Assembly (NCBI GenBank): GCA_947311625.1
Contig: CAMZKW010000002.1
Location: forward strand, 19,013-83,012
Direction: 5' to 3'
Origin: Candidatus Campbellbacteria bacterium
GTDB lineage: Bacteria > Patescibacteriota > Minisyncoccia > Phycocordibacterales > GCA-2747955
Length of the DNA stretch: 64,000 nt
The translations under genes and the position numbers were made by a program. The first letter of the stretch is position 1. Every line of letters begins with the position of its first letter. Positions 1 through 64,000 of this stretch are shown here, one piece after another. Below the pieces are notes generated by a model. It did not search any database. It was not told the origin of the DNA and worked only from the letters and a program-made list of their open reading frames with translations.

Positions 1-885
1 CTATGGAAGCCAATTCTTCCAAAGCCACAAAATTAGAAATAATTGCTTTTTTCTTTGCTAAAAGATGTGCTCCAATAGCCATGGTGACTGAAAGTACAGT
101 TGATAAAGCAACGGGGATTGAAGCAATTGCTAAAACCAAAGAAAAACTAAGAGTATCCACAAAAGATTTTCCTTCTATAAAATATAGATAAATAAAAGTT
201 ATAACTACCAAAACAGAAGATAAAATAATTAAAAACCTTCCAATGGATAAAATCGCTTTTTGAAAATGACTTTCTTCTAAATTTTCTGCTTTGGCAACAA
301 GGTGAGCTGCATTACCAATAAATGTGTCTTTTCCTATTTTAGTAACTTCCATAACCACAAGTCCTTTTTCTAAAATAGAAGATGCAAAAACTTCATCACC
401 TTTTTTTTTTCTACCGGAAGTGATTCTCCTGTAATAGTTGATTGATTAAAAAGAGTATCTTTTAATTCTAAAATCTTTCCATCTGCTGGAGCTATATCCC
501 CTATTGATAATTTTACAATATCTCCCGGAACCAACTCTCTAGCATCAATTTCAGAAAATTTTCCATTTCTTAAAACTATAGCCGTGGGGGCTAGATTTTC
601 TTTCAAAACATCAAGAGCTTTTTTTGCTTTTCTTTCTTGAAAAAAATCAACAGATAAATTTACTAAAAGTAAAATCAAAATTATTCAAAAATCAGACCAG
701 TGAGAAACTACGGCTGATAATAAAAGAGCAGTTTCTATCATTAAAGGTATTGGAGAAAATATTTTTTTAAATAATTTTCCTAAAAAAGTTTTTTCTTTTT
801 CTTTAATTTCATTGAAACCAAATTTTTTTTGAAGTTCTTTAACTTTCTCTGAATTTAATCCTTGATATTCTTTTTCATTAAACAT
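1..885 (-). CDS. P-type cation-transporting ATPase, N-terminal ~295 codons. It runs off the left edge and its frame is broken in an A10 homopolymer.
   Basis: ATG at 885-883 (MFNEKEYQGL...). N-terminal TM helices and the actuator motif TGESLPVEKK are present. There is one in-frame TGA (687-685). After the T10/A10 run at 401-410 the family-typical continuation GDEVFASSILEKG...IASIPVALSTVLSVTMAIGA reads in a shifted frame: the run has 10 A, and 11 or 8 would keep the frame. Confidence 0.8.
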
Positions 886-918
886 AAAATATATTATATC
901 ATTTTTAAATAAAAAAAA

Positions 919-1180
919 TTAAAATAAATTTTTTAGAAATTTTAATCTTTTTTTTTCTGGCATTTTTTTAATAGCGTAACGGAGAGCGATACGAGGAATT
1001 TTTTTATAGTTAGTGTGCAAAAATTCTTCGCAATTTTCCGCAAATCCGGAACACTTACACTAATAAAAATATCTCCTTTTCCGTATTCTCCCTTTCCAGT
1101 TTTAAAAAATCTTTCGTTAGCCTTTTTCTTTCTGGAGAGGAATATTTTTTTAGTTCTTTTTTAATTTTTTTAATTAACAT
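919..1180 (-). pseudogene. Remnant of a second AlkD-like DNA alkylation repair gene, with an N-terminal piece fused to a C-terminal piece plus a frameshift.
   Basis: The DNA is clearly homologous to both ends of the 3020-3751 gene. N-terminal side: ...ANERFFKTGKGEYGKGDIFISVSVPDLRKIA. C-terminal side, in another frame: EEFLHTNYKKIPRIALRYAIKKMPEKK. The middle ~150 codons are missing and there is a 1-nt deletion in an A run. Confidence 0.6.
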
Positions 1181-1360
1181 AAAATAATCTTAACATTATA
1201 AAAAAATATCTTAAACCTAAATTAATAAAATATTAATTTTATGTAAAAAAAAAACTTAACCGATATTTTTTTGATTTTCTTTATCACTCTCCAACAACAC
1301 TATTTTTAATCCTGTAAATCTATCATACAAATCATCTTTTTTAATAAAAACAAAATACAA

Positions 1361-1753
1361 CTCTATCAAAAAATAAATTATACATAAAGGAAATAGAAAA
1401 CACAAACCAAATAAAACTGATCCATATTTTAATCAAAATCTAAAAAATAAATTTCTATATACAATTATTTTTTTCTCATCTTCTTTTATACTAACTATTT
1501 TTAGCTTAACAAGCTTATAACCCAATGTTTGACCATCTTTAAAATAAAAAAATGTTTGAATCATAAAAATTATTATTGTTAATAACAAAGAAAAATAATA
1601 AATCATTGTAGATGTTTTAGAAGGTCCACTATTTGACAACCCACTTCCATCTAAAAACAAGCTTGAAATAATTAATATTATAAGAATAATAAAATATGGA
1701 GTAAAATCTATTAATCCGGCTTTTAATCTTTTTTTTAAAAAACTCTTTTTCAT
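1361..1753 (-). CDS. RDD-family small membrane protein
   Basis: ATG at 1753. The N-terminus RLKAGLIDF and the motif DGQTLGYKLVKLKIV resemble RDD domain proteins. Merged across TGA at 1435-1433 and 1366-1364; TAG stop at 1363-1361. Confidence 0.55.
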
Positions 1754-1815
1754 AAAAATATATTAACATAAAATACTCTATAATAAAAATTAAACCTTCT
1801 AATAAAATAAAATCC

Positions 1816-1838
1816 GAAATTTTGCTTCGCAAAATTTC
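1816..1838. terminator. GC-cored hairpin GAAATTTTGC-TTC-GCAAAATTTC (family 1)
   Basis: Perfect 10-bp stem directly 3' of the minus-strand gene 1867-2904, with a T-rich tract following on the minus strand. Confidence 0.7.
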
Positions 1839-1866
1839 TGCTTTTCAGATTTCCTATCCTAAAAAA

Positions 1867-2904
1867 TTATTTTATTTCCCCTTTTTCAATCAATAATTTT
1901 TTACCAACTGTGTTTTTTATTTTTGTATCCGTTGTATCTCCATGTTTTTTCAAAAATGTTTCTTCAAATTTTACAGTCCCACAAAATTGTGCAATTTTTT
2001 TAACTCCTCCTGGGTGAATAGGTAAGAACTTTGTAACATCATAAACATTTCCTTTATAAACCACTCAACAATCTGATTCGGAATTATGTTTTTTCAATTC
2101 ATCCTTAGTAATTACTCCATCTATTTCAGCTAACATTTCTTTTGCTTTTTTTCCTCCACCCATAGCCTCTTCTTCCATATGTTTTTTACCAGAATTAACT
2201 GCCTCTAACAACTGTGCCTCTGTGATATATTTTGGATTAAAATCACCACCAACTCTTTTTAGATTTCTATAAAATGCAGACATGTGATGTTTAGATTGTT
2301 TTAGCAAAGTACTATATGCTAACTTTAAATCTTTTTTATCAGTTACATTTCCATATTTTATTAAATTAGCCATATTTATATCTTCCACCATTGCTCCAAC
2401 TTCAAAAGCATCTTTATCTGATTTTTTACCTTTTTCTGTTAATTCTTTGTATAATTTTGTAAATTTAGTATTTGTAAAGACACCCTGTTCTGATTCATCT
2501 TTTACAGGATCTTCTAAATCATACCTATCAATCAACTGATCAAAAACATCCATGTGTCTATTTTCAGAAACTGGAATATTTACAAAAGCTTTTGATTTTG
2601 TAGTTTTTGATAATTCCCTATAAATATCTCTTGCCATTTTTTCTTCCTCTCTCATGTGAATAATAGCTAACTTTTCATCTTCTGTTAAAATTCCTTTTTT
2701 GAAAGTTGAAAAATCAACTGTATGTTCATCACCATGTTTATCTTTTTTTTCAAACATTTCCTCATGTTTTTCCATTGTTTCTATAGACACTTCTTTTATT
2801 TCTTCTTTTACAGAATCTACAAATTTTCCTTTGTAAGTTGAATTTCCAAAATACAATGCCGCCAAAGCAACTAAAACCACTACTACTAATATTAATTTTT
2901 TCAT
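1867..2904 (-). CDS. Membrane-anchored fusion of a DUF2202 (ferritin-like) domain and a C-terminal cytochrome b5-like heme-binding domain
   Basis: N-terminal hydrophobic anchor (LILVVVVLVALAALYF). The middle section resembles DUF2202 (EEEKMARDIY...ENRHMDVF...EVGAMVEDINM...KHHMSAFYRNL). The C-terminus HNSESDC[TGA]VVYKGNVYDVTKFLPIHPGG matches the cytochrome b5 signature (DCW...VYDVT.F...HPGG). Merged at TGA 2067-2065. Confidence 0.75.
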
Positions 2905-5181: not shown

Positions 5182-5295
5182 TTGTGTCGGCGAATAGTTA
5201 CTTTCCCAATAAATAGTATCATCACCAGTACTGGACTTAACTTCTGTGTGCGAAATGAGAACAGGTGTACCCCCAGTCTCTAATCACCAACACAA
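5182..5295 (-). rRNA. rrf: 5S rRNA
   Basis: The terminal helix pairs TTGTGTTGGTGA with TCGCCGACACAA. An internal block CACACAGAAGTTAAGTCCAGTACTGG resembles the conserved 5S loop region. It lies ~150 nt downstream of the 23S 3' end. Confidence 0.85.
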
Positions 5296-5449
5296 AATAT
5301 CTTTTTTTTGAATCTATTGACTCAATGGTAAACTCAAATAAAATTTAAATTTACCATTGAATCAACAATTAAATATAACAAGTGCAGTTTGTATTCCAAC
5401 AAAAAGGTTACCAGAAAGTGAATCACTTTCTTGAAACTTTCTAATGAAA

Positions 5450-8856
<3,407 letters not shown>

Positions 8857-9186
8857 TTTCATCAGAAAATTTCAAAAATATGATTCTCAGTTTTAATAAA
8901 TTAAAACTGAATTAATAAGCCATCTAATCCGAAACCTGTATCAACTAAATAAATTTAATTGATAAGTTCTCTTACTTAAATGTTTATGTTTTTTTACGAG
9001 TAACCTTTTTGTTTTTTTTAACTGTTTTTTTTACTGTATGTAAAAATAATAATTATTTTTTCAAGTGTCCAATATATAAAATATATTATAATTAGACTCA
9101 ATGAAAATACAAATTGTTACCTGTTATATTCAATTGTCAAAGTTCAATACTCCAAATAAGAATTACTTCAAATTTGCAGTGGGAGT

Positions 9187-9936: not shown

Positions 9937-10008
9937 AAAATAATTTTAACATATTAAAAAATATTTTTTAATAAAAAAAACATATATATGTTTTTTTTAT
10001 ATTTTTTG

Positions 10009-10090
10009 TACCCGCGAGAGGGCTCGAACCTCCATGGATTGCTCCACTGGTTCCTAAGACCAGCGCGTCTACCAATTCCGCCACACGGGC
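10009..10090 (-). tRNA. tRNA-Leu (anticodon UAG), long variable arm, no encoded CCA
   Basis: GCCCGTGTGGCGGAATTGGTAGACGCGCTGGTCTTAGGAACCAG...GGTTCGAGCCCTCTCGCGGGTA folds as a cloverleaf with anticodon loop CTTAGGA. Confidence 0.9.
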
Positions 10091-11755: not shown

Positions 11756-13555
11756 TTAATCATTTTTCATCATTTTAAGAAATACATCCTGTCCGATATC
11801 AACCTTACCCATCCCTTTCATCTTCTTTTTTCCTTTCTTTTGTTTTTCCAAAAGTTTTTTCTTCCTTGTAATATCTCCCCCGTAAAGTTTTCCCGTTACA
11901 TCCTTTCTATATGCCTTAACAGTTTTTGAAGATAAAATTCTACCAGAGACTTTTGCTTGAACTTTCATAACAAAGTTTTGTCTCGGTAAAACTGAATGAA
12001 GTTTTTCTACAGCTTTTTCCGCTTCTTCTTGCATTCTAACTGATGAAACAATTTTTGCAAAAGCTACAACTATTTCATCTGCTACTAAAATATCCATTCT
12101 TGTGACATCAGCCTTTCTGTAACCATCGGGTTCATAGGATAAAGAGGCATAGCCAGAAGTTTCTGATTTTAATTCATCAAAAAATCCTCTCATCAATTCT
12201 CTCAAAGGAACCTCTGCAATAATTTCAACTCTACCATCACCAAAATCTAAATTTGAAATCACTTGACCTTCGTGTCTATAAAATAATTGTGAAATTGTAC
12301 CAGAATAATCTCCCGGAGAAATTATTTTAGCCTTTACCCAAGGTTCCTCCACCACAGAAACATCTCCATGGTCTGGAAACAATGATGGATTATAAATTAT
12401 TTGTTCTTCCCCAGATTTTAATTTAATTTTATAAACAATGGTGGGCTGAGTAATTATTAAATTCATATCGTGCTCCCTTCTTAACCTTTCGGTGATAATT
12501 TCTAAATGAAGCATTCCTAAAAAACCACATCTATAGCCGCGACCAAGAGAACCAGAAGTTTCTTCTTCAAATGTTAAAGATGAGTCAGATAATTTTAATC
12601 TTAAAAGAGCCTGTCTTAAATTATCAAATTCATCTTGAGATTCTGGATAAAGAGAAGCTCAAACAACTGGTTTTGGTTTTTCGTATCCTTCCGTTGATTC
12701 CACTGGATTTTTAAAAGAAGTAATAATATCACCCACGGAAGCAATTCCTGGTTTTTTAATACCAGTTACTATATATCCAATTTCACCGGGACCTAATTTA
12801 TTAACTTCTTTTTCAAATGGGGTAAAAATACCAACTTCTCCAGATTTAAATTTTTGATTAGCAACTTTAAATAAAAGTTCTTCATTTTTTTTCACTTCTC
12901 CAGAAAAAATTCTAACAAAAACTATAATACCTTTATTATCATGGTAGGAAAAATCAAAAATCAAGGAATCTAATTTATCATCATTTTTTATTTCTGGTGC
13001 TGGGACTGACTTTATTATTTCACTAATTAAATCAGGGATACCTTCTCCAGTTTTTCCAGAAGTCTCAATTATATCTTCCATTTCTACATCAAGTAAAATT
13101 GCAATTTCTTCTTTTACTTCATCAACTCTTGCTATTGGAGAATCAACTTTTGACAAAGCTGGGATAATTTTTAATCCAGCTTTTTTTGCCATATCTAATG
13201 TTGTTAAAGTTTGAGCCTGAACCCCTTGAGTTGCATCCACCAAAAGAACTGCTCCTTCAACTGCTTTCATGGCTCTCGAAACTTCGTAGGAAAAATCAAT
13301 GTGCCCTGGAGTATCGATTAAATTTAAAATATAATCTTCACCATTTTCTTTATGCTCCATCCTTACTGGTTGCATTTTTATGGTTATACCTCTCTCCTGT
13401 TCCAATTCCATTGTATCTAAAACTTGGTCATGCATTTTTCTTTTTTCAACGGTATTTGTAGCGTCCAACATTCTATCGGATAAAGTAGATTTTCCGTGAT
13501 CAATATGGGCAATTATAGAAAAGTTTCTAATATTTTTAATATTCATATTTTTCAT
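11756..13555 (-). CDS. lepA: Elongation factor 4 (LepA)
   Basis: N-terminus IRNFSIIAHIDHGKSTLSDR, then DTPGHIDF and the C-terminal LepA domain (GYRCGFLGMLHLEII...GKLYGGDITRKKKLLEKQKKGKKKMK). Pieces 12659-13555 and 11756-12514 are in one frame, joined through TGA 12661-12659. Confidence 0.95.
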
Positions 13556-13622: not shown

Positions 13623-13687
13623 AATTTTCAACAGGCAGGGCCTGTCCTTTTTTAATAAAAAAGGACAGGTCCTGCCTGTTGAAAATT
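13623..13687. repeat. 65-nt near-perfect hairpin (31-bp stem) abutting the RAYT stop codon
   Basis: AATTTTCAAC-AGGCAGGGCCT-GTCCTTTTTT / AAAAAAGGAC-AGGTCCTGCCT-GTTGAAAATT, with one G-T wobble and a 3-nt loop. Each arm also contains its own small palindrome (ACAGG..CCTGT). Confidence 0.85.
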
Positions 13688-14357
13688 ACCTTTCTAATTC
13701 GTTAAATTTTAAGTTATTGAAATCTTGATTATGTTTTTCAGAAAAATATTTTGATTTATTTTTTAAAAATTCTTTATACTCTTTAATCCCACCAATAGTA
13801 TCTAAGATATATTTAATTTCTTTTTGAGAGCAAATTTTATCCCCTTCTTCTTCTCCTAAAAATTCAAATAAAGATGTTTTTACTAAATCTTTTTTTATAT
13901 CATGATTATGATGTTTATAATTTAGATTTATATAAGCGGAAACAATTTCTCTACCCAATTCTCCATCAATATCTTTCGATTTAAATCTTCCTTGAAATAA
14001 AACACCGCTTCTTTCATATTTTTTATTAAAATATTTTGTATAAGAATTTGATATTTTAGACATAAATTTAGAAATACCATTTTCAACCTTCTGTTTTAGA
14101 ATAAAATGAAAATGATTTGGGAGTAAAGAGTAAGCAATAATTTCAACAAGTTTTTCATTATCTTTTTTATTTTCTTTTAAGATTCTTCTTTTTTTATTTC
14201 TTTCATTTGAATTCAAAGCCTCAACGGAATTAGCAATTTGAATTGCATCAAAAAAATAATACAAATCCCCCTTATCTTGAAAAATTATTCTTTTATCTAC
14301 ACCTCGATTATAAATGTGATAATATTTATTACTATAAAATTCTCTTTTTGTTGCCAT
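13686..14357 (-). CDS. IS200/IS605-like Y1 (HUH) transposase of the REP-associated (RAYT) type
   Basis: 223-aa intact ORF. YHIYNRGVDKRIIF, HUH motif LLPNHFHFILKQ and GVLFQGRFKSKDI are typical of COG1943/Y1_Tnp proteins. It is a single gene with no tnpB and is bracketed by hairpins at 13623-13687 and 14384-14448. Confidence 0.75.
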   Translation of the reverse strand: MATKREFYSNKYYHIYNRGVDKRIIFQDKGDLYYFFDAIQIANSVEALNSNERNKKRRILKENKKDNEKLVEIIAYSLLPNHFHFILKQKVENGISKFMSKISNSYTKYFNKKYERSGVLFQGRFKSKDIDGELGREIVSAYINLNYKHHNHDIKKDLVKTSLFEFLGEEEGDKICSQKEIKYILDTIGGIKEYKEFLKNKSKYFSEKHNQDFNNLKFNELER

Positions 14358-14383
14358 AGAAAAATCTTATCATATTTTTTCTA

Positions 14384-14448
14384 AATTTTCAACACCTTGA
14401 AGGTGTCCTTTTTATTTTAAAAAGGACACCTTCAAGGTGTTGAAAATT
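14384..14448. repeat. 65-nt perfect hairpin (30-bp stem) upstream of the RAYT gene, overlapping the stop codon of the tail-fibre-like gene
   Basis: AATTTTCAAC-ACCTTGAAGGT-GTCCTTTTT / AAAAAGGAC-ACCTTCAAGGT-GTTGAAAATT. The outer and inner stem segments match those of 13623-13687, while the 11-nt core is different and is compensated on both arms. Confidence 0.85.
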
Positions 14449-16336
14449 ATTTTTCTAATTTTTCTAATCTTCTTTCTAAATCGTTTAACCTTTTTTCCTG
14501 TTCCTTAATCTTTTTATCTTGTTCTTGTAAAAGATTTATCATTGGCACTGCTAATTTTGGATAATCAACAGCTAAAATTCCTTTATCATCTTTCTTTACA
14601 AATTCTGGGAAATATTTTTGAACTTCTTGGGCAATAATACCCACATCAGCTTTTCCATCTTTCTTTCAATTAAATCTTACAGCATTGATTTTTAAAATAT
14701 CTCTGTAATTTTCTAATTTTTTAATATTTTTCTTTAATCTTCTATCTGAATTATATACAAAAGAATCTGCTTTTACATTTCCATTAACTTGTAATTTTTC
14801 TCCTGGTGAAGTTGTTCCAATTCCGACATTATTAGACATATAAACATTTCCACCTGTAATATCTAATCTTGAAGCATTGTCTAAATGCAAATCAACTGTT
14901 GAAGAACCATTACCATAACCTAAATAAAAACCTCTCTTTCCATCATCCCTTCTTCCTTCAAAAATTCCATAATGATTATTGACTGTTGATTGAGCAGTAT
15001 GTCAATACCCGTCACCATTTATCATAGTTCTTCCATCAACTTGAAAACCACCATCTGCTCTTAGCATTTTATTTATATAAACATCCTTATTTCCAAAAGA
15101 TCTAATTCAAGTATTATCAGACATATTTCATCCACCACCATGATCTTGGAAATATAATCCATTACTCCCTTTTGTTCTAATTCATCCTGTGCTTTGGATA
15201 TCACCTATAACATCAAGTTTTTGAGATGGTGAAGTTGTTCCGATTCCGACATTACCACTAAAATAACTTTTATCAGAATAAATATTTAAATAAGTTAAAT
15301 TACCACCACCATAATTATATAAATTTAAATTACCCTTTCCTCCATTGGGGTGACCCGCACCTATAAATGTTCTCCCATCTGAATATTGAAAAAATGCACT
15401 GGCACTTCAATCAGAACTTGGGTTATCACTAAAAATATATTGTCCTTTTATATCTCCTGATACATCCAACTTCGCTGTTGGTGAAGTTGTTCCAATTCCA
15501 ACTTTACCATCTGTATAAACTGCATCAGCGGTACTTGTTCCATCAACAAATTTTCCACCTTTAAATAAAGAACCATTTTTGTATAGATCCCCTGAGAAAC
15601 TTATATTTCCATTTACATCCAACTTCGCTGTTGGTGAAGTTGTTCCGATTCCAACGTTACCATCTATATAAACTGCATCAGCGATATTTGTTCCATCGAC
15701 GAATTTACCTCCAAAATCAAGAAGAACCCCTGATTTATATAAATCTCCTGAGAAATTAATATCCCCTAAAACATCTAATTTTTTAGTTGGTGAAGTTGTT
15801 CCGATTCCCACTCTCTTTGTCCCCATATCAATAGTCATATTAAAATCATAACCATTAGCTAACCTATCTTTATCATAACCAAAGAAACCAAAATCATCAC
15901 CAAGACCACCAAGGTTAATAACATGTCCACTTGATGTTTTTTGCCTAATTAATGAATGATATCCACTAGTTGTTAACTGCGTTGACGATGTTATACCACC
16001 TGTTCCAGTTTTACCAGCAATTCACATACTTCCTGGAGCTGTAACTTTTAAATTACCATTAACATCCAATTTCGCTGATGGTGAAGTTGTTCCAATTCCA
16101 ACTTTAGAAGAACCAGAAGCATTACCTTGAAGTAGAATATCTGTTCCCACAAGTAAATTCTTCACACCGATACTACCATCTTTTGTTTGGGTTGATGTAG
16201 ATGTGTTTATGGGCGCTGAAACATTATTATTTGGAGCTGTCCCCGTAGGACCAACTCAGTTTTCGGCCATAGTTATACCTGCAAAAGTTGCCAAAACTGA
16301 AACCAAGATTATACTTATTATATTTTTTGTATTCAT
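14447..16336 (-). CDS. Secreted tail-fibre-like protein (629 aa) with repeated VGIGTTSPxxKLDV motifs and a C-terminal peptidase-S74-type intramolecular chaperone domain
   Basis: ATG at 16336 and a signal-like N-terminus (IISIILVSVLATFAGITMA). There are six copies of (V/R)GIGTTSP(S/T/G)xKL(D/Q)V. The C-terminus NSDRRLKKNIKKLENYRDILKINAVRFN[TGA]KKDGKADVGIIAQEVQKYFPEFV...AVDYPKLAVPMINLLQEQ plus a coiled coil matches the endosialidase/tail-fibre chaperone domain. I translated 15409-14888 by hand: only TGA interruptions. Confidence 0.8.
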
Positions 16337-19900: not shown

Positions 19901-20535
19901 TTAACAATAAGTTTATCTTTTGATATTAAAAATGGTTGCATTACTTGAGCAACATCTGCAGTATTGTTATTCCCATCACCGCTGGTAGCTGTTGTATTAT
20001 CATCACCTAAGGTGTTACTAGGTTCACTTTCTTCATCTTTCACAATATTATATGTATAGACCCCATCTTCCCCATCATCTTCAACAATAAAATTACCAAC
20101 AATCCTATCTATGTCTTTCGACAAATCCACCTTTGTGGAGGTAATTTTTAAGTTTTTAACTTTTTCATTCAAATCATTAACATTTATATTTAGTATTTTT
20201 TCTTTATTAGTTGATTTTTCTATTACTTTTATTGAATAAATGCTTACTCTTTCAAAATCTATACTTGGAGTATTAACAATTAAATCTTTTTTATCTTTTA
20301 TTTTAAATCTGAAATTATCTACGAAACCATCTTCTAAAACAAACTCAGCTCCTACATTTCCCATATCTGAAAAAGTTCCGATTTTTGTCCCATTCTCAAC
20401 ATTTTCATTAACTGAATTATTATCTAATACAATACCATTATCAACATCTTCAGCGTATATAAAACCTGTAAAAATACCTGTAAATAACAATAAGGCAAAG
20501 AACAAAGATTTTTTTTTTTTAATTTTTTTTTTCAT
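16990..20535 (-). CDS. Giant secreted or surface protein (1181 aa). It has an N-terminal signal, cadherin-like repeat region, a hydrophobic segment, a Cys-rich region and a long uncharacterised C-terminal part.
   Basis: The four listed ORF pieces (19759-20535, 18562-19077, 18043-18486, 17185-17439) share one frame. I translated every gap by hand and found only TGA codons. The stop is TAA at 16992-16990. The N-terminus is KKKSLFFALLLFTGIFTGFIYA. Cadherin-like blocks include ENGTKIGTFSD...FRFKIKDKKDLIVNTPSIDFERVSIYSIKV. Confidence 0.8.
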
Positions 20536-28680: not shown

Positions 28681-28686
28681 ACTCAA

Positions 28687-44085: not shown

Positions 44086-44091
44086 TATTTT

Positions 44092-45582
44092 ATGAAAAAA
44101 AATAAGGTAATTTTAGTTGTTCGTGATGGTTGAGGCCACAGAGAAGAATTAGAGAAAAATTTTGTTAAATTAGCTTTAACTCCGAATACCGATGAATTAG
44201 AAAAAAAATATCTAACTTTGTATATTGGAGCTTCCGAGGAATATGTAGGACTTCCAAAAGGCTTTGTTGGTAATTCAGAAGTTGGTCATATGACTTTAGG
44301 AGCTGGAGAAATTCTTTTTCAATCTCTTTCAAAAATAAATAAATCAATAGAAGGTGGTGATTTTTTTCAAAATAGAGAGATTTTAAAATCAATTCAGAAT
44401 GTAAAAAAGAATAAATCAAAACTTCATTTGATGATTTTAATGCAAGATGCTGGAGTTCATTCCCATATTTCTCATCTTTTTGCCATGATGGAATATGCTA
44501 AAAAGGAAGGTTTGGAAGGGGATGATATTTATTTACATTTAATTACCGATGGAAGAGATGAAAATCCAAAATCAGGAATTGAATTTTTAATTGAAGTTTC
44601 TGAAAAAATGTCTGAATTAAAACTTGGTAGGGTGGCAACTATTTCTGGAAGGTATTATGCCATGGATAGAAATAAAAATTGAGAGAGGACAGAGAAATAT
44701 TATGATGCTGTTGTTTCTGGGGTTTCCGATGAAATTTTTACTTGTGGAAAAGAAACAATCTTTAACTCATATGAAAATGATATCAGTGATGAATTTATTA
44801 TTCCAAGGGTTAAAGAAGGTTATGAAGGATTAAAAGATAACGACTCTTTAATATTTTTAAATTTTAGAAAGGATAGACCAAGACAAATAACTAAATCTTT
44901 AAATGAAGATAATTTTAATGGTTTTTTAAGAAAAGAAAAAAAAGAAATATATTTTCTTTCAATGACAAGATATTATAAGGAACAAAAAAGTCCAGTGATT
45001 TTTGAAGATGAGATTGTGGAAAATACCTTGGGTGAAATTTTGGAAAAGGATGGAAAGACTCAGTTGAGAATTGCAGAAACAGAAAAATTTGCCCATGTAA
45101 CTTTCTTTTTTGATGGTGGGGTAAAAAAAGATTTTCCTCATAAAAAAGAAATTATTATTCCTTCGCCGGATGTGGCAACTTATGATTTGAAGCCGGAAAT
45201 GTCAGCTTACGAGGTGGTAGAAAGACTTTTAAAAGAGATTGAAGAGAATGAACCAGATTTTATTTTGGTAAATTTTGCTAATACGGACATGGTTGGGCAC
45301 ACAGGAAAATTTGATGCTATTAAAAAGGCGGTGGAAGTAGTTGATGATTGTGTTGGAAAAGTTGTTGAAGATGGAGAAAAGAAAAATTATTCAATTATTC
45401 TAACTGCTGACCATGGAAATGTTGATGATAAGAGAGATGATACCTTAACAACCCATACCGTTAATAAAGTTCCTTTGACAATTATCACCGATAAAGAAAA
45501 TCTAGAAAAAATTGATTTGGATAAAATTAAGGGTTTATCGGACATAAAGGATATTATTTTGAAATTTATGGATTTGAAATAG
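44092..45582 (+). CDS. gpmI: 2,3-bisphosphoglycerate-independent phosphoglycerate mutase
   Basis: Family blocks are VRDG[TGA]GH, GNSEVGHMTLGAGE, SGRYYAMDRNKN[TGA]ER, ETEKFAHVTFFFDGG and NFANTDMVGHTG...TADHGN. Confidence 0.92.
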
Positions 45583-47167: not shown

Positions 47168-48625
47168 ATGCAAAAAATTAAAAATTTTTTTAGTAAGAAA
47201 ATAAATATATTCGCTCTAGTCATTATTATAGCCGCACTATCTTTTGGTGGTTATAAATACATGACCAAGGCAAATGGAGATGATTATTGTTCCTATAATA
47301 CAAGAGTGTATGATTTATTGAGAGACCAGATAGTGACATCCTGTGCTGATATTAGTTGAGATAGCTGAGAATTAGATAAATCTACTAAGAATAAACCAAT
47401 TAGCGAACAAAAAATGGTTAGAAAAGGGACGGGAACAAAAACCATTATTGATTATAGAAAAAAGAAATTAGTTTATTCAAAGACTGAAAGTAGGTATGTT
47501 GGCGATGGACAGGCTTTTAATTTTTGTTTTGAACCTGTGGATGAAAATTGTAAAGGATTACCAGGTACATTGAATAACTATGATAAGGTAGGTAGTGACA
47601 GCTATAAGATATATGAAAAACATGCTGCATGTTATAATACTTTTGGATATATTGCTTACCTAAATTCTAGAAGAATAACTATAAAAGAAACTAAAGTTAA
47701 TAAAAAGACAGATCGAAATTTAAGAAATGATTCAACCGCCAATGTTTATCGAACAAATAAAGTTTGTCAAGTAAGGCAGACAGATGATCTTTGTAAAATT
47801 AAGCCGGAGACTGAAGGTTGTAATAGATGTAAAGCCGGTCCTTGAAGTCCTGACCCATCAACAAAATGTAAAGGAATCAAATTTACTCAAGATAATGATT
47901 GTGAAAAAAGAGATGCTATAGGAGCAAAAAAATGTGAACCTAATTATTGTAAATTATACCCAACAGCTTCAGAATGTGTTGTATGTAAAGCCGGTCCTTG
48001 AAGTCCTAACCCATCAACAAAATGTAAAGGAATCAAATTTACTCAAGATAATGATTGTGAAAAAAGATTTGATGTAGAAGGAACTAAAGAATGTGGTAAT
48101 AATTTCTGTGATTATCATCCAACCGATGAATCTTGTCAAAGCGATGATACAACTATTACAGAAGATGATGATGAAACAGCTGGAGATGATTTTGTAGAGA
48201 CAGATGCTGATGCTCAGGAAGAAAGTCATGAGAGAGTGCAAATTGATGCAGGTTTGGCATGATCTAAATCAAAATCAGGACCATGATCTACTGACTTTGA
48301 TAAATTAATTTTACTAAAAAGTAAAAAAGATTATATTTATATTAAAGTAACTCCGGAAGAGGGTGTAACATGTAATTGAGGTCCAAGTGATATATTTCCG
48401 TTATATGATTCCTCAATAGATATTCTTGGGATAAAAGAATATCTTGGAATTGATACAATAAAAACTAATACATCTGAAAATTTAATTTATATAAAACCAA
48501 CAAATAATGTCGAAAATGGAAAAGTGTATAAAGATGGAATAAAAGTTAATTATTGTGCTAGTCCAAATGATAATGAAAAAACTTTAAAATTTAAGGTTGT
48601 TGATATCGTTCAACAAGAAATTTAA
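47168..48625 (+). CDS. Secreted Cys-rich protein (485 aa) with an internally duplicated 52-aa module and an acidic linker
   Basis: N-terminal TM or signal segment and about 30 Cys. The repeat CKAGP[TGA]SP(D/N)PSTKCKGIKFTQDNDCEKR occurs twice. The GP[TGA] motif recurs. I read it through in one frame to TAA 48623. Confidence 0.65.
47827..48067 (+). repeat. Two 85-bp copies (47827-47911 and 47983-48067) differing at one base, with a 156-nt period
   Basis: Direct comparison: ATGTAAAGCCGGTCCTTGAAGTCCT(G/A)ACCCATCAACAAAATGTAAAGGAATCAAATTTACTCAAGATAATGATTGTGAAAAAAGA. Confidence 0.9.
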
Positions 48626-48722
48626 GAAAAAGTTTTTAAAAAATTGATTTTTATTGAAGAAAAATAAATTATTAAAAAAAATAACCTTTGGTTATTTTTT
48701 TTAATAATTTCATCCTATTTTG

Positions 48723-48807
48723 CGGTGGAGACAGGATTTGAACCTGCGGTACAATAATGTACACATCGTTTCCAACGATGCACCTTAAACCACTCAGACA
48801 CTCCACC
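48723..48807 (-). tRNA. tRNA-Ser (anticodon GGA), long variable arm
   Basis: GGTGGAGTGTCTGAGTGGTTTAAGGTGCATCGTTGGAAACGATG...GCAGGTTCAAATCCTGTCTCCACCG folds as a cloverleaf. Confidence 0.9.
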
Positions 48808-48854: not shown

Positions 48855-50417
48855 TTAATTTAAATTAATTTTTTTCTTTTTTTCAAAATAAGCTTTAATT
48901 TTTCTTTTTGCAGTATTTGTTTTTACAAAATCTAATCACTTTATATTTGGAAGTGCATCTTTTTTTGATTGTATTTCTACGATATCACCATTTTCTAATT
49001 TTGTACTCAATGATTTAAAATCATTATTTATTAAAGCTCCTGTGATTTTAAAACCTAAATCAGTATGAACCATGAAGGCAAAATCTATCGGAGTTGATTC
49101 TTCTGGTAAATCTATAACATCTCCATTTGGTGTAAAAACAAAAATTCTATGGGTAAAGAAATCTTCTCCAAGTTCTGATTCAATTCTTTTCAAATCTGTG
49201 TCTAAATCATTTTCACTCGTTTCTGCTAGTTCAGATATTCATTGATGATTATTATTTTTAGAATTATTATTGCAACAATCTTTTTTTAATTTATTATCAT
49301 CTTCTTTTGTATTTTTAAAAATATTAATTAATTTATCAAATCAATCTTTTTCTCTAGATTTATTGTTTTCAGATTCATCTTTATATCCTATATGAGAAGC
49401 GGCTCCAAGTTCTGCTTCTTCATGCATTTCTTCAGTTCTTATTTGTATTTCTATAATATTTCCATCTCCAGTAAAAACTGTTGTGTGAATAGATTTATAG
49501 CCATTTGGTTTAGGGAAGGCAATATAATCTTTAATTCTTCCAGGCATCGGTCTATAATTCTGATGTATAATACCAAGAACTTCATAGCAATTTTTTATAT
49601 CCTTAACGACTATTCTCACGGCTGCGACATCATAAACCTTATTTAAATCCCATTTTTTTCTTTTTAGTTTTTTATATAAAGAATAAACTCCTTTTATTCT
49701 GTAGGTACTTTTGAAATCTATAATATTTGATTCTCCCAGTTTTCTCTTTATGGATTTGATTACTTTCTCTAATTTATTTAAAGTTTGTTTTTTTCTAATT
49801 TTTAAAATTTCATTAGTTTTTTTATATGCTTCTGGATAGACATGGGGGAATGATAAGTCTTCTAGTTTTTTAGAAAAAGTGGTTATTCCGAGTCTGTAGG
49901 CTAGAGGTGCATAAATATCTAGAGTTTCTGTAGCAATCCTCAATCTTTTTTCAGGACTAACGTATTTTAAAGTTTCCATATTGTGAATTCTATCGGCAAA
50001 TTTAATTATTGCCACTCTAATATCTTTTGATGTGGCAATAAAAAGTTTTTTTAAAGATTCGTTATGCCTCTTCATTCCTTGATATCTAACTTTTCCAAGC
50101 TTAGTGACTCCATCAACTAAAAAAGCAATTTCATCACTAAACTTTTCTTTTAATTCTTTCTCAGTGGCCACACCATCTTCTACAGAATCATGTAATATTC
50201 CAGCAGCAATGGTGGGTGCATCCATTTTTATTTCTGCCAAGTTTTTTGCAGTAGCAACAAGGTGTATAAAGTAAGGTTCTCCTGATTTCCTTTTTTGTTC
50301 TTTATGTGCCTCCTTGGCAAAAAAATAAGCTTTTTCAATGATTTTTTTATCTTCATTTTTTAAGTAAGATGCTATGGAAAAAATAGAATCTAAATCTTTT
50401 TCATTTTTAATTAACAT
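48855..50417 (-). CDS. RelA/SpoT-homolog (p)ppGpp synthetase/hydrolase: HD domain, synthetase domain and TGS domain
   Basis: The HD domain carries HLVATA...GILHDSVED. The synthetase domain carries YRIKGVYSLYKKL...DVAAVRIVV...GYKSIHTTV...EIQIRTEEMH. The TGS-like domain carries IFVFTPNGDVIDLPEESTPIDFAF. Pieces are in one frame across TGAs; TAA at 48857-48855. Confidence 0.88.
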
Positions 50418-51766: not shown

Positions 51767-53011
51767 TTATTTATTTTTTTCTAAAATTCTATCAATGGCA
51801 ATTTTATGAGCGGCTAACCTTCAAGGAAGTTGTCTTTCTTCAGCTAAACTCTTTACTTCAAAATAAGCCTTCAAAATTTTATCCTTTAATTTTTGATTAA
51901 CTTCTTCCAGGCTTCAATGTTCATTTTTTAAATTCTGTTCTCATTCAAAAACAGAAACAATAACCCCTCCAGCATTAGCTAAAAGGTCTGGAATTATGGA
52001 AATATTTTTTTCTAATAAAATTTCCTCAGCTCTTGGACTAACTGGTCCATTAGCTAATTCTACAATTTCCTTTGTCTTAATTCTCTCTGCATTTTCAAAA
52101 GTTATAACATCTCCCAGAGCAGCTGGAATTAAAATATCAACTTCTAATTCCAATAATTTTTCATTGGAAATTTTTTCTTCATCTTGAATTTCTGAAAGTC
52201 TTTTTTTTCTTTCTTCTCTATAAACAAAATTATAAATTTTTTCAATATCTAAACCTTCTGAATTATAAATTCCAGTTTTTGAGTCTGAAACTGCAATAAC
52301 TGTGTATCCAATATTGTGTAAAAGTAGAGCAATGGTTCCGCCAGCATTTCCAAAACCCTGAACTGCAATTTTAATTTCTTGTTTATTTTTAACCTCTTTA
52401 TATTTTTCTTGAATAATATAAAATGCCCCCATAGCAGTGGATTTATCTCTTCCTTCTGAACCACCATCTTCAATTTTCTTTCCTGTAATAAATGCAGGGT
52501 TTTTACTTTCAGTAATTTTATCATATTCATCCATCATTCAACCCATTATTTCAGGGGTGGTATTAACATCGGGAGCTGGGACATCAATTTGTGGTCCTAA
52601 ATAATTAAAGAATTCTTTAACATAGCCACGGGATATTTTTTCTAATTCTGTTTTTGAATAATCTCTTGGGTTGATTTTAACTCCACCTTTAGCACCACCA
52701 AAATTCAAATCAGCCAAAGAATTTTTTAGAGACATAATAAAGGCTAATTCTGAAACTTCTGACAAATTTACATCCTGGTGGAAACGAATTCCTCCTTTTC
52801 CTGGTCCTCGGTTTCCATTGTAAAGAACTCTAAAAGCTTCAATAATTTCAATTTTTCCATCATCTCTAATAATAGGAAAATGAGCTTCTAAAATTCTACG
52901 AGGATTTTTAAAAATTTTTAATTTTTCTTCATCAACTAAATTTGTATTGTGTAATTTTTCTAATTCACTTTTGCAAGCAGGACAAATTACTTTATCTTTT
53001 TCTGTGTACAT
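51767..53011 (-). CDS. gdh: Glutamate dehydrogenase (Glu/Leu/Phe/Val dehydrogenase family)
   Basis: Family blocks are GPGKGGIRFH, GGAKGGV, PDVNTTPEIMG[TGA]MMDEY, VQGFGNAGG, NAGGVIVSVFE[TGA]EQN and H[TGA]SLEEV. Confidence 0.92.
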
Positions 53012-58859: not shown

Positions 58860-60140
58860 ATGATAAAAAAAAGAAAGGATTTTTTTAATTTTAAAATTGA
58901 AAAAAAATTAAGAGATAAAAATGGAAAAGAATTTTTGGGTAGAGTGGGTGGATTTGAAACTGCTCATGGAATAATTAAAACACCAGCCTTCGCCACTGTG
59001 GGAACTAAGGCAGCCATTAAAGGTTTGACCGTAGAGCAGTTGAAGGAAATTAACCCAGAAATTTTTCTTGCTAACACCTACCATCTGTTTTTAAATCCTG
59101 GTCCGGAAATTATTAAAAATCATGGAGGACTTCATAAATTTTCTCGCTGGGATGGACCAATCATGACCGACTCAGGAGGTTTTCAAGCCTTTTCTCTAGG
59201 GGCTGCTTTTGGAAAAAATATTTCTAAAATTGCCAAAGATGACACTGATTTTATTCAGACTAAAAAAAATGAAAACAAAACCGGATTTGCTAAAATAACA
59301 GAAGATGGGGTGGCTTTTAGGAATTACAAAACAGGGGAGAAACTATTTTTCTCACCGGAAAAATCAATGCAAATTCAACAGGATTTAGGAGCAGATATCG
59401 CATTTGCTTTTGATGAGTGTACTTCGCCTCAAGCAACCTATGAATACCAAAAAGAAGCCATGGAGAGAACTCACCGTTGAGCTATTCGTTCTTTGGAAGA
59501 GCATCAGAAATGAGAAAAAAAGAAGGAAAGTTTTTTGGAAAAAATAAAAAACAAAATTCAAAAAAATGAAGTTTATCCCCAGGCACTTTTTGGAATTGTT
59601 CAAGGTGGTAGATATGAAGATTTAAGAAAAGAATCAGCAGAATTTATTGGAAGTTTAGATTTTGATGGATTTGGAATTGGTGGTTCTTTTGATAAGGATG
59701 ATATGGATAAGGCCGTAAGAGTCGTCAATGAAAAACTACCAGAAAATAAACCAAGACATCTTTTGGGAATTGGTGAACCCATTGATTTATTTATGGGTGT
59801 GGAAAATGGAGTAGATTTTTTTGACTGTGTTGCTCCAACTAGAATGGCAAGACACGGAGCACTTCATACAGAAAATGGAAGGTTGAATATAAAAAATGCT
59901 CAGTATAAAAATGATATGAAACCCATTGATGAAAAATGTCAGTGTTATACCTGTCAAAATTATACTCGTTCATATGTAAATCATTTAATTAGGGAAGGGG
60001 AGATGTTAGGTATGACTTTAACTTCAATTCATAATTTATATTTTATTGTAAATTTGGTTAAAAGAATAAGACAAAGTATTTTGGAAGATAATTTTTTTGA
60101 GTTTAAGGAAGAATTTTTGAAAAATTATTATAAAAAATAG
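58860..60140 (+). CDS. tgt: Queuine tRNA-ribosyltransferase
   Basis: Family blocks are TPAFATVGT, ANTYHL, MTDSGGFQ, FAFDEC, GIVQGG, GFGIGG and the zinc site CQCYTCQNYTRSYVNHL. Two pieces are joined via TGA 59478 and 59511. Confidence 0.93.
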
Positions 60141-60725: not shown

Positions 60726-62738
60726 TTATTTAACCCCTTTTTTAAATTTTTCAGATGATTTTTTAGATTCTAATTTTCCAGTGTATTTTAAATCAATGGC
60801 TTTCATATTTAAATCAACTTTTTCAACTTCCGTTGTTATTCTATCCCCAAGTCTAAAAACTTTTCCAGTTCTTTCTCCAACTAAAGTCATATCTTTTTCA
60901 TTATATTTAAAGTAATCATCACCAATGCTTCTTGCAGGTATTAATCCTTGAGCCATATTTTCAGTATTTTCCACAAAGATACCAAATTTTTTAATTCCAG
61001 AAATAACTCCATTAAATTTTTCTCCAATTCTTACGGAATAATATTGAGCAAATTTAAATGCAATAGATGCTCGTTCTGCATCAACGGCTTTAACTTCCAT
61101 TTCCGAAGAATGTTTTGCATCGGAAGCAATTTGTTTTAATTCAGATTGAGGAATAATTTCGCCTTTTAAATATCTCCTTAGAAGTCTGTGGGCCACAAAA
61201 TCTGGATATCTTCTAATGGGTGAAGTAAAATGAGAATAGTAATCAAATGCTAAACCAAAATGCCCTCTGGCTTCAGTTGAATATTTTGCTTTTTCCATGG
61301 ACCTTAAAAGGGTTAGTGAAATAATACCTTCCTCATCAGTTCCTTTGTATTTTTCCATGGCTGAATTTATCTCTCGAGCATTCATAGAGCCATCATGGTT
61401 TAAATCAACATCATAGCCAACTTTTTTAAGAAATTCGATGGATTCATGCATTTTATCCTGTTTTGGTTTATCGTGAATTCTATAGATAAAAGGATTTTTT
61501 GTTTTTAAACCTGCTTTTAATGATGCTCTCATGGAGACCCTTTTATTATCTAAAAGCATAAATTCCTCAATAAGTTCCATGGTTCTCACATGAGGTTTTA
61601 CATAAATTTCCGTTGGAAATTTATCTTTATCTAGTTTGAATCTAACCTCCTTTGAGTTAAATTTTATGGAACCATTTTTATATCTTTTTTCTTCAAGTTT
61701 GTCTGCCATGTCCAGAAGAATTTTTAAATCATTGTACATGTCTCCAAAACCATCATCGAGAGTTTTTTGAGCCTGCATATAGTCATATCTTTTTTTAGAT
61801 ATAATAACAGCATCACCAAATCATTCATCAACAACTTCACCATCGGGTGTCATTTCAAAAAGTGATGAGAAGGTTAATTTTTCTTCATTGGCATTTAGAG
61901 AACATAAATCATTTGATAAAACCTCGGGAAGCATTGGTATTGTTCTATCAACTAAATAAATAGAGGTAGCTCTTTCTTTAGCTTCTTTATCGATTACAGA
62001 ACCTGGCTTCACAAAAAATGAAGGGTCGGCAATATGCACTCCAATTTCAATATTTCCATTTTCTAACTTTCTAGCTGAAAGGGCATCATCAAAATCTTTA
62101 GCATCGGAAGGATCAATGGTAAAAACATTTAAATGAGTTAAATCTCGTCTAATTTTTTTTTGCTCCTCGATCATTTTTACAGAATCTTTTTTTAGTTTTG
62201 CTGCTGCTTCTTCAACTTCATGGGGAAATCCCATAACCAAACCTCTATCATATACTGCCGCTGCCATTTCAGTTTCATTGTCTCCAACTTTTCCTAAAAC
62301 TTTTTGGATAATAACTTTAGCTGGATGTTGGGCATTTTTTCATTTATCTAATTTTATTACAATTTTTTGACCCTTTAAATTTTTGAATTTATCAAAGTTT
62401 GTTATTTCAACTTCAGGATAAAAACGAGAATTATCGGGAATAAATTTTAATTCTTTAATCTTTTTTGCACCATTATCTCCTTTTTTTGGTTTAATTGATT
62501 TTTCAACTTCATCAATTCTTCCAACAAATATCATTTTATTTCTTTTTGTGATTTTTAAAACAACACCAGTTTCTTCTTTTCATTTATTTTTTCCAGTAAT
62601 GGAAATTTCAACCGTATCTCTATCGAGAGCTTTATTTAAATCTTTTTTATCTATATTTACAAAGGAACCATCAGCTTTTTCAAAAAAACCATTTCCTTTT
62701 GCATTTGTTCTAATTGAACCAGTTAATGTTTTAGTCAT
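60726..62738 (-). CDS. rnr: Ribonuclease R (RNB family 3'-5' exoribonuclease with C-terminal S1 domain)
   Basis: The RNB domain carries FTIDPSDAKDFDDALS, YLVDRTIPMLPE, HFGLAFDYYSHFTSPIRRYPD and S1-like FNGVISGIKKFGIFVE. The pieces are in one frame. ATG at 62738, with TGTTATAAT (62753-62745) 6 nt upstream. Confidence 0.92.
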
Positions 62739-62806
62739 AAAATTATTATAACATTTTGAATGATAAAAACCGAAAATATTTTTTTAAATTTTAGTTTTTT
62801 ATTAGA

Positions 62807-62829
62807 GGGTGGCGGCTACGCCGCCACCC
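62807..62829. terminator. GC hairpin GGGTGGCGGC-TAC-GCCGCCACCC (family 3)
   Basis: Identical to 47129-47151. Confidence 0.75.
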
Positions 62830-62880
62830 AAAAATAATAAATAAATTTTTTCAAAAAAAAAGTAAGTAAAGCCAAAGGCT

Positions 62881-63057
62881 TTACTTAAGATATTTAGTTA
62901 TAAAACTAAATACTTTTTTAATATTTTTAAGATTAACTTTGACGATAAGATCTCTTGCAAGATCCCTTACATGAGAATTGTAATGGTCCTGAAACCTTAC
63001 AATGCTTTCGTAATCCAGTTTTCCCACTGGGATTTTCAAAGTGATATCTCTTGCCAT
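62881..63057 (-). CDS. Possible 58-aa ORF in a GC-enriched, highly self-complementary island (alternatively an ncRNA)
   Basis: ATG at 63057 preceded by AAGGAG (only 1 nt of spacing). It encodes MARDITLKIPVGKLDYESIVRFQDHYNSHVRDLARDLIVKVNLKNIKKVFSFITKYLK, with TAA at 62883-62881. It is below the ORF-track length cutoff. Confidence 0.3.
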   Translation of the reverse strand: MARDITLKIPVGKLDYESIVRFQDHYNSHVRDLARDLIVKVNLKNIKKVFSFITKYLK

Positions 63058-63399
63058 ACTCCTTATCTTAGAACAAGAAGAATTTTGAAACTCAAAAAGA
63101 GTTTCAAAGCCATATCTCTCCGGTGAAGAAAGAAACTCTCTTTATTCTTTTTTTAAATCTAAAAAAAATATATCCTTTAATATTTTCCATTTTGTCTCCG
63201 TAGACATTTTAATTTAACTCAGAAGATTTTAAAAAATCTCCACATTTTTTCCGTCTCTTACAACAACTCCAAAATTTTTTAAGATAAATATTTAATAAAA
63301 TATTCACCTTAAAAAGCTAGTCTAAGTATATTTAACCATTTTATTGATAAAAAGTCAGACTATTTTTTAATATTTTGTGGATAATTTGATTTTAGAAAA

Positions 63400-63420
63400 G
63401 GACGGCGCGTAGTGCCGTCC
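63400..63420. terminator. GC hairpin GGACGGC-GCGTAGT-GCCGTCC, 3' of topA
   Basis: 7-bp stem. T/A runs flank it, 14 nt from the topA stop. Confidence 0.7.
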
Positions 63421-63433
63421 TTTTAAATCATTT

Positions 63434-64000
63434 TTATTTTTTATCTACAACCCCATATTCTTTTTTTTCTTCATCGGAAAGCTTGTCCGGTCTATGCATG
63501 GGACAAGTTTTTACGGAACATCTTTCGGGAATTGTTTTTGTACCTTCCATCATTAACTTCCCACAAATGGGACATTTTTTTCCAGTGGGTTTAGTCTTTA
63601 TAGCATTTTTACAATCTGGGTAATTGGAGCAAGAATAAAATTCTCCAAATCGACCCTGTCTTTTTGTCATCATACCATCAGCACAATCAGTGCATTTAAT
63701 TCCAGTGGAATTTAATTTTTTCTGTTCTTCAGATTCTTCAATATATTTACAAGTGGGATATCGAGAACAGGAAATAAATTTTCCAAATTTTCCATCTCTT
63801 TCAACTAGAACTCCTAACTTTAAGTCTTTTTCTTTAAATTCAGGAATTTCTTTTCCAGCAGCATCTGCTTTTGCTTTTTTAATTTCTCATTTTTCTCTTC
63901 TATCTTTTTCCTTTTGAATTTTTTCCAAACCTTTTTCAGATTCTGCTCCACATTTTGGACAAGTTTTTCCTATCTCCTTTGGACCTTCTAACTCTTTTCC
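63434..64000 (-). CDS. topA: DNA topoisomerase I, C-terminal zinc-ribbon region (partial; continues beyond the right edge)
   Basis: Repeated C4 topoisomerase zinc-finger modules are present: GRFGEFYSCSNYPDCKN, GKFGKFISCSRYPTCKY and CPKCG... These are interrupted only by TGA. Confidence 0.85.

Follow-up and report, generated by a model that had tools for sequence, protein, structure and literature searches.

Evidence that UGA is read as tryptophan in a 64-kb stretch of a Minisyncoccia genome

The codon UGA is very probably read as tryptophan (translation table 4) in the genome of the class Minisyncoccia that is represented here by a 64,000-nucleotide stretch of contig CAMZKW010000002.1 (NCBI assembly GCA_947311625.1), referred to below as the window. 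The window has a guanine-plus-cytosine (GC) content of ~28%, and 47 open reading frames (ORFs) comprising 16,929 codons were defined in it, 46 of them complete. In-frame TGA codons occur 122 times in this set, spread over 37 of the 47 ORFs. The complete ORFs terminate at TAA (37) or TAG (9), and TGA is needed as a stop by none. When only TAA and TAG are taken as stops, coverage by ORFs of at least 100 residues rises from the 63.5% observed under table 11 to 86.1%, and the maximum ORF length increases from 375 to 1189 residues. An earlier note, made from the letters of this DNA, had proposed that UGA is a sense codon, that TAA and TAG terminate, and that TGG is also used; all of this agrees with the counts, which include 27 TGG codons.

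1–64000 (no strand): whole window, TGA is a sense codon and the stops are TAA and TAG

The length of ORFs is by itself a weak argument, because opening TAA likewise lengthens ORF totals in the AT-rich DNA of the window. The case is carried by the continuity of homology and by the identity of the alignment columns. Glutamate dehydrogenase (GDH) aligns with PDB chains over residues 16–411 in a single frame that crosses four TGAs, and PDB alignments of gpmI, tgt, and rnhA run through TGA in a single frame as well. In addition, the TAA/TAG stop of LepA falls at the same end as the C termini of its homologues. The following gene assignments hold up in searches of Pfam, the PDB, and homologous proteins. 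Pfam supports Cyt-b5, SpoU, RecG, S16, GT2, M50, RelA/SpoT, SecD, SecF, RNase R, and DprA, with further matches to TSP3_bac, PG_binding_1 with a beta-propeller, Y1 transposase, and N6_Mtase. The PDB supports gdh, gpmI, encoding the cofactor-independent phosphoglycerate mutase (iPGM), tgt, and rnhA, and the homologue search supports LepA, LysS, and RNase R. The ten TGA coordinates given in the earlier note are all TGA, each in the frame of the gene named. The genes and TGA codons that bear on the choice of amino acid are as follows.

51767–53011 (−): gdh, glutamate dehydrogenase; five PDB GDH chains, E about 1e-104
52540–52538, 51943–51941, and 51916–51914 (−): gdh TGAs at residues 158, 357, and 366, aligned with Trp (PDB)
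51823–51821 (−): gdh TGA at residue 397, aligned with Met (PDB)
44092–45582 (+): gpmI, cofactor-independent phosphoglycerate mutase (PDB)
44131–44133 and 44680–44682 (+): gpmI TGAs at residues 14 and 197, aligned with Phe and Trp, respectively (PDB)
58860–60140 (+): tgt, queuine tRNA-ribosyltransferase (PDB)
59478–59480 (+): tgt TGA at residue 207, aligned with Trp
59511–59513 (+): tgt TGA at residue 218, in a lineage-specific insertion that cannot be aligned
28177–28680 (−): rnhA, RNase HI (PDB)
28614–28612 and 28425–28423 (−): rnhA TGAs at residues 23 and 86, aligned with Tyr and Trp, respectively (PDB)
11756–13555 (−): lepA (EF4), with one TGA at residue 299 (12661–12659)
42300–43988 (+): lysS, class II lysyl-tRNA synthetase, with four TGA columns
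60726–62738 (−): rnr, RNase R (Pfam and homologues)
62582–62580 (−): rnr TGA at residue 53, in a variable loop and uninformative
33644–34096 (−): rpsP, ribosomal protein S16 (Pfam)
1867–2904 (−): protein with DUF2202 and cytochrome b5 domains (Pfam)
48855–50417 (−): rel, with HD_4, RelA_SpoT, and TGS domains (Pfam)
21488–22267 (−): SpoU-family RNA methyltransferase (Pfam)
37942–39186 (+): membrane GT2 glycosyltransferase, with 13 TGA and zero TGG codons

To read the meaning of the codon, TGA was translated as X, and the residue at each X column was taken from homologues that use the standard code. Among ~25 TGA columns aligned in this way, the commonest residue is Trp in 16, Phe or Tyr in 6, and Met in 1, with 1 uninformative variable loop; several of the 16 Trp-dominated columns are 95–100% Trp. 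A conserved Gly is found at none of these columns, as the earlier note had maintained. Controls from the same alignments behave as expected, in that TGG codons of the window fall on Trp and Gly codons of the window fall on Gly.

The single TGA of LepA lies in a column that holds Trp in 72, Phe in 6, and Tyr in 1 of 79 related LepA sequences from GTDB genome loci. The recoded relative L001, which was left out of this count, has TGA at the same column as the window. In LysS, compared with 100 homologues of <68% identity, residue 148 is Trp in 80 and residue 320 in all 100, residue 372 is split among Tyr (49), Phe (41), and Trp (10), and residue 385 among Phe (83), Trp (11), and Tyr (6). In RNase R, compared with 74 homologues of <48% identity, residue 133 (62342–62340) is Trp in all 74 and residue 306 (61823–61821) in 70. 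Smaller alignments point the same way. The TGA of S16 at residue 57 (33928–33926) corresponds to Trp in the four ribosome-structure chains for which alignments were shown, and that at residue 280 of the cytochrome b5 domain protein (2067–2065) is the Trp of the D-C-W motif in three of three solved cytochrome b5 domains. Trp is also found in five of five homologues at residue 494 of rel (48938–48936), in which two further TGAs lie in a low-complexity linker, and in two of two homologues at each of residues 178 and 251 of the SpoU-family methyltransferase. The two TGA columns of an HI0933-like protein correspond to Trp and Phe. Residue 55 of the GT2 glycosyltransferase is Tyr in three of three PDB chains, the PDB alignment of this protein covering only its N-terminal catalytic half.

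The earlier note had placed several TGAs on invariant or aromatic Trp positions, and two of these placements require adjustment. The TGA in DG[TGA]G of gpmI is in frame, and the position is Phe in solved iPGM structures and is thus aromatic rather than an invariant Trp; similarly, the TGA in QPT[TGA]I of lysS (residue 385) occupies an aromatic column dominated by Phe. The TGAs in [TGA]AKPVP of the M50 protease (40400–40402) and in QRLR[TGA] of the GT2 glycosyltransferase (residue 265, 38734–38736) are both confirmed as in frame. The latter, which lies outside the region aligned here, is presumably the Trp position of the textbook Q(Q/R)xRW motif.

Codon composition leads to the same assignment. 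TGG alone accounts for 0.16% of codons, whereas TGA and TGG together account for 0.88%, which is a normal content of Trp; Gly codons already make up 6.4%. Many long proteins of the window contain several TGA codons and zero TGG. Because TGG is almost absent, TGA must supply Trp. With 122 TGA versus 27 TGG codons, UGG has been largely displaced as the Trp codon, as is expected at this GC content.

A Cys-rich, secreted-looking protein encoded at 47168–48625 (+) has no Pfam match and is built from a repeat module, CKAGP[TGA]SP(D/N)PSTKCKGIKFTQDNDCEKR. Each of the seven Trp codons in this protein is TGA, and the repeated G-P-W-S-P core fits Trp at this codon.

Several points weigh against the assignment of UGA to Trp in this genome. 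Instead of Trp, six of the aligned TGA columns show Phe/Tyr and one shows Met. At residue 53 of RNase R, a column in a variable loop, remote homologues most often have Gly (25 of 74); the remote homologues carry Gly, Asn, or Asp at this column and the nearer relatives Trp, Tyr, or Phe. The placement of the genome rests on single-protein identities and a neighbour-joining tree of LepA, not on a multi-marker phylogeny. Finally, neither a UCA nor a CCA anticodon is found among the tRNAs of the window, also when the Rfam threshold is relaxed, and the window has no release-factor gene with a GGQ motif (prfA or prfB), although 64 kb is uninformative on the whole genome. Therefore, the step that decodes UGA and the loss of release factor 2 (RF2) are only inferred for this genome.

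The decoding tRNA is visible in related genomes. Directly downstream of lysS, three recoded relatives (L129, L130, and L131), with LysS proteins 78–80% identical to that of the window, carry a 72-nucleotide tRNA(UCA).

L129, 6788–6859 (−): tRNA-Trp(UCA)
L130, 7211–7282 (+): tRNA-Trp(UCA)
L131, 12038–12109 (+): tRNA-Trp(UCA)

These tRNAs fold into a regular cloverleaf with a 5-bp anticodon stem, an A1-U72 pair, and discriminator G73. In bacteria, G73 and A1-U72 are Trp identity elements, and the identity set of tRNA-Gly consists of G1-C72, C2-G71, G3-C70, and U73. In a comparison set of ~165 Patescibacteria tRNAs, the best matches are the tRNA-Trp(CCA) genes of two standard-code relatives (L007 and L017), with 82–84% identity over 68 nucleotides, and tRNA-Gly genes match only in pieces of 13–19 nucleotides. 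Genes for tRNA-Tyr(GTA) and tRNA-Arg(GCG) lie close to the lysS-adjacent tRNA-Trp(UCA) in all three relatives.

In the window, no tRNA follows lysS, and the spacer (43989–44091) consists of A and T only. The gene order at lysS has thus changed, since the tRNA cluster of the relatives is missing here, and a tRNA-Trp(UCA) gene, if present in this genome, is located elsewhere than after lysS. In the relatives, ARAGORN finds tRNA(UCA) only around lysS and none in their LepA and RNase R loci (L001–L087, L122–L128). A metagenome scan with the tRNA-Trp(UCA) pattern GGGNNNNTAGTTYARTGGTAGAACNNNNNNYTTCAAA returned 34 loci, and these have no protein in common with the window or the Patescibacteria loci compared. 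The pattern was too strict, because the tRNA of the relatives begins with AGG and has GGTAAAAC. The loci returned by the scan (L088–L121) are mostly very AT-rich (GC about 0.19–0.27), heavily TGA-recoded metagenome contigs; the four examined in detail (L089, L091, L094, and L102) carry nad/cox-type mitochondrial genes, resemble protist mitochondria, and are unrelated to the window.

By analogy with these relatives, the genome of the window would encode a tRNA-Trp(UCA), derived from tRNA-Trp and charged by tryptophanyl-tRNA synthetase, whose U34 would read both UGA and UGG. Its sequence would be expected to lie close to aggcgattagtttaatggtaaaac..ggtcttcaaaacc..gttcgattc..catcgcctg. RF2, encoded by prfB, would be lost, as two 2026 papers report for recoded Minisyncoccia. 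That both features apply to this very genome is probable.

An alternative route to the same amino acid is that a near-cognate tRNA-Trp(CCA) reads UGA, for example by the kind of 4-bp anticodon stem suggested for Zinderia, perhaps with UGA also keeping a context-dependent role as a stop. The window leaves room for this route insofar as it has no tRNA-Trp of either kind and an empty lysS-adjacent site, and the 4-bp-stem mechanism is documented in some bacteria (PMC13092985). However, the tRNA(UCA) of the three recoded relatives has a standard 5-bp stem, and most recoded Minisyncoccia genomes have tRNA-Trp(UCA) (bioRxiv 10.64898/2026.05.24.727570). The preponderance of TGA over TGG leads one to expect efficient cognate decoding, and a retained stop role finds no ORF of the window that would require it. 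Near-cognate decoding is therefore unlikely, and a dedicated tRNA-Trp(UCA) is preferred.

It is very improbable that UGA encodes Gly (table 25), as it does in the Patescibacteria class JAEDAM01 (Absconditabacterales, BD1-5). The only known table-25 lineages do belong to the same phylum, and the variable RNase R column noted above is one at which Gly predominates among remote homologues. Against this stand the absence of conserved Gly from all of the ~25 TGA columns, 16 of which are dominated by Trp, and the Trp content, which under table 25 would drop to 0.16% of residues. Moreover, the tRNA(UCA) of the relatives has a Trp-type body with G73 and is without the tRNA-Gly identity set, and the nearest relatives of the window are Paceibacteria, not JAEDAM01. 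On the basis of column identities and codon composition, table 25 is rejected and table 4 is supported, which upholds the choice of Trp over Gly made in the earlier note.

The lineage of the window was examined with LepA, LysS, and RNase R. In a scan of GTDB species-representative genomes, the best 80 LepA loci are 50–69% identical to LepA of the window and carry Parcubacteria-type titles, namely Paceibacterota, Nomurabacteria, Zambryskibacteria, Wolfebacteria, Kaiserbacteria, Taylorbacteria, Azambacteria, and Portnoybacteria, or generic ones ("Patescibacteria group", "bacterium"); many are third-party annotation (TPA) assemblies labelled "uncultured Candidatus Saccharibacteria". The sole exception among them is a 2.75-kb contig filed under Nitrotoga (59% identity). 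In a large protein collection, which includes LepA of the window itself (P0001, 100%, from an NCBI contig of 115,984 bp), LepA relatives form a graded series of 93, 81, 78, 76, and 74% identity. The closest named genome is GCA_002747955.1 ("Candidatus Campbellbacteria bacterium"; LepA PID83487.1, contig PDQZ01000008.1), with 74% identity in LepA and 66% in LysS, and this genome gives its name to the GTDB genus GCA-2747955. In LysS and RNase R, the named neighbours bear the labels "Campbellbacteria", "Pacebacteria", and "Patescibacteria group", and the best LepA, LysS, and RNase R matches include no mollicute and no proteobacterial endosymbiont. Judged by these protein sequences, the source of the window is a member of Patescibacteria, class Minisyncoccia (Paceibacteria/Parcubacteria), away from the table-25 class JAEDAM01.

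The 295-residue "GTP-binding protein" HIP33188.1, from a "Bacteroidia bacterium" metagenome-assembled genome (MAG), belongs to the 90%-identity cluster of P0002, the LepA of the 93% relative. This entry looks like the product of mis-binning combined with truncation under table 11; its length of 295 residues fits a cut at an in-frame TGA (codon 299 in LepA of the window).

The stable RNA genes of the window are as follows.

5443–8861 (−): 23S rRNA, 3419 nucleotides versus 2925 positions in the model
5185–5291: 5S rRNA, after the 23S rRNA
10008–10090 (−): tRNA-Leu(TAG)
32063–32135: tRNA-Glu(CTC)
34280–34352: tRNA-Arg(TCT)
48722–48807: tRNA-Ser(GGA)

The 23S rRNA gene contains an insertion of ~470 nucleotides at E. 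coli 23S position ~2594 (window 5736–6206, minus strand). A group I intron core is detected within it at 5744–5943, with 47.3 bits versus a gathering score of 50, and with E = 7e-11 in the local search; the insertion is too short for a homing-endonuclease ORF. No 16S rRNA is present anywhere in the 64-kb window. The 23S rRNA is thus intron-bearing and unlinked to 16S, as the earlier note had described, and its attribution of the DNA to the candidate phyla radiation (CPR)/Patescibacteria, rather than to a mollicute or insect endosymbiont, is sustained by this gene and by the LepA, LysS, and RNase R neighbours.

A source in one of the classical table-4 lineages (Mycoplasmatales or a reduced insect or protist endosymbiont) or in an organelle has next to no likelihood: low GC (28% here) together with UGA as Trp is typical of such groups, but LepA, LysS, and RNase R each find their best matches, with identities as high as 93%, in MAGs of Parcubacteria/Paceibacteria, and the gene content and the intron-bearing 23S rRNA without an adjacent 16S fit CPR.

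The genetic code of the relatives was judged by the jump in ORF coverage upon opening TGA and by in-frame TGA codons. By these measures, recoding is observed in L122 (ENA ERZ23486553, LepA 93% identical; coverage 0.70 to 0.93), in L081/L127 (GCA_054047225.1; 0.73 to 0.91), in L001 (JALUMP010000037.1; 0.73 to 0.96), in L125 (GCA_054008035.1; 25 TGA versus 4 TGG), and in L129–L131 (about 0.70 to 0.91–0.96). The standard code is used by GCA_002747955.1 (ORF coverage of 0.91 and 0.95), GCA_964608745.1, GCA_020628915.1 (L124), and the JGI contig L123.

That the TGAs represent pseudogenes, sequencing errors, selenocysteine sites, or occasional read-through rather than a change of code has a negligible probability: a P-type ATPase at the left edge of the window (2–918) does look frameshifted, but the 122 TGAs in 37 genes are always in frame and occupy conserved aromatic columns, an independent relative also has TGA at the LepA column in question, independent assemblies of relatives share the jump in ORF coverage, and TGG is so scarce that Trp must come from TGA.

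Recoded and standard-code genomes interleave in this clade, at 69–78% LepA identity. In the neighbour-joining tree of LepA, one recoded group holds the window, L122, P0003, and GCA_054047225.1, and its sister group holds the standard-code genomes GCA_002747955.1 and GCA_964608745.1. Beyond L123 and L124, both of which use the standard code, comes a second recoded group made up of JALUMP01 and GCA_054008035.1. This pattern is only suggestive, because the tree is a single-gene distance tree. The group of the window might represent a further, independent reassignment of UGA to Trp, or belong to a succession of gains and losses, within one family-level clade of Paceibacteria, although this proposal is tentative and, on balance, doubtful. 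If it were true, the clade would catch the code change at several stages, and a TGG-rich block of the window at 25.3–31.9 kb would mark recent gene import from standard-code donors.

This block (25321–31869) encodes a 921-residue membrane protein, rnhA, a 290-residue ORF, and an N6_Mtase methylase. It contains 13 TGG versus 9 TGA codons, in contrast to 14 versus 113 in the remaining window (Fisher p = 2e-6), and its GC content of 0.297 is no different. The block could be a recent import from a standard-code donor, or its genes could be lagging in codon conversion.

Other features of the window are recorded here as observations. An IS200-like Y1 transposase gene (13686–14357) has zero TGA codons and lies between two long, near-perfect hairpins (13623–13687 and 14379–14450), which surface as spurious microRNA matches in Rfam; the layout of 13623–14450 resembles a REP-associated tyrosine transposase (RAYT) or an IS200/IS605-type element. 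The P-type ATPase at 2–918 (−) consists of two overlapping ORFs in different frames (370–885 and 2–445) and extends past the left edge of the window, and its frameshift is either that of a pseudogene or an assembly error. Two large surface-type proteins are encoded at 14447–16336 (−), with 8 TGA codons, and at 16990–20535 (−), with 1181 residues and 11 TGA codons, and both have zero TGG. One of the two is tail-fibre-like, with VGIGTTSPxxKLDV repeats, a shufflon-like stretch, and a C-terminal Peptidase_S74 chaperone domain.

The recoding of the window is real, but its kind has already been described in this phylum by two papers of 2026. In April 2026, a reassignment of UGA to Trp was reported in Nucleic Acids Research for the Patescibacteriota family JAKLIH01 (order UBA6257, class Minisyncoccia), with tRNA(UCA) in two of four genomes and with RF2 and UGA stops absent (PMC13092985). 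In May 2026, the gTranslate preprint assigned table 4 to 12 JAKLIH01 genomes and 10 genomes of the genus GCA-2747955, with three code-11 genomes inside the same genus; the recoded Minisyncoccia mostly have tRNA-Trp(UCA) and are without prfB (bioRxiv 10.64898/2026.05.24.727570). The earlier note had called the combination of code and lineage unusual. That combination is real and was soundly drawn from the sequence, but it was already published in April and May 2026, including for the genus GCA-2747955. A 2026 paper on Eggerthellaceae names only three other phyla for the UGA-to-Trp change (PMC13462651).

Patescibacteriota is so far the sole bacterial phylum known with three codes (tables 11, 4, and 25). 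To the known cases the window contributes one that is independent and well supported, from a genome deposited at NCBI, and the present analysis adds a concrete tRNA-Trp(UCA) sequence and its lysS-adjacent locus in related recoded genomes. Because recoded and standard-code genomes co-occur at such close LepA identity, the clade is a good place to study stop-codon capture. In practical terms, table 11 mis-annotates such genomes, and table 25 would write TGA-encoded Trp as Gly.

Comparison with known systems shows the closest likeness to the published recoded Minisyncoccia (GCA-2747955 and JAKLIH01), with which the window shares phylum, class, reassignment, and low GC; the tRNA-Trp(UCA) of those lineages is observed here in relatives of the window. 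Recoded genomes stand beside standard-code genomes, as the gTranslate preprint describes for GCA-2747955. The recoded genomes of the preprint come from GlobDB, whereas the genome of the window is an NCBI record that was compared by single-protein identities. JAEDAM01 ("Gracilibacteria" of the older literature, table 25) belongs to the same phylum and likewise has reduced, AT-rich genomes in which UGA is a sense codon, but there UGA is Gly by way of tRNA-Gly(UCA), whereas the columns of the window are Trp and the tRNA(UCA) of the relatives is Trp-type.

Similar to the window, the Mycoplasmatales (table 4) read UGA as Trp, prefer it over UGG, and have AT-rich reduced genomes; in these bacteria tRNA-Trp(UCA) decodes the codon, as is probable for the window. 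They belong to the phylum Bacillota, so the origin of the reassignment is independent. The window further differs in having RuvC, Tgt, TSP3-repeat proteins, an intron-bearing 23S rRNA, and best matches in Paceibacteria. Capture of the stop codon for Trp together with genome reduction and/or loss of RF2 is also found in Hodgkinia, Zinderia, Nasuia, Stammera, Organicella, Pinguicoccus, Fastidiosibacteraceae XS4, and Eggerthellaceae (PMC13462651). All of these fall within Pseudomonadota, Verrucomicrobiota, and Actinomycetota, mostly as obligate intracellular symbionts, whereas the organism of the window is a CPR bacterium from environmental metagenomes.

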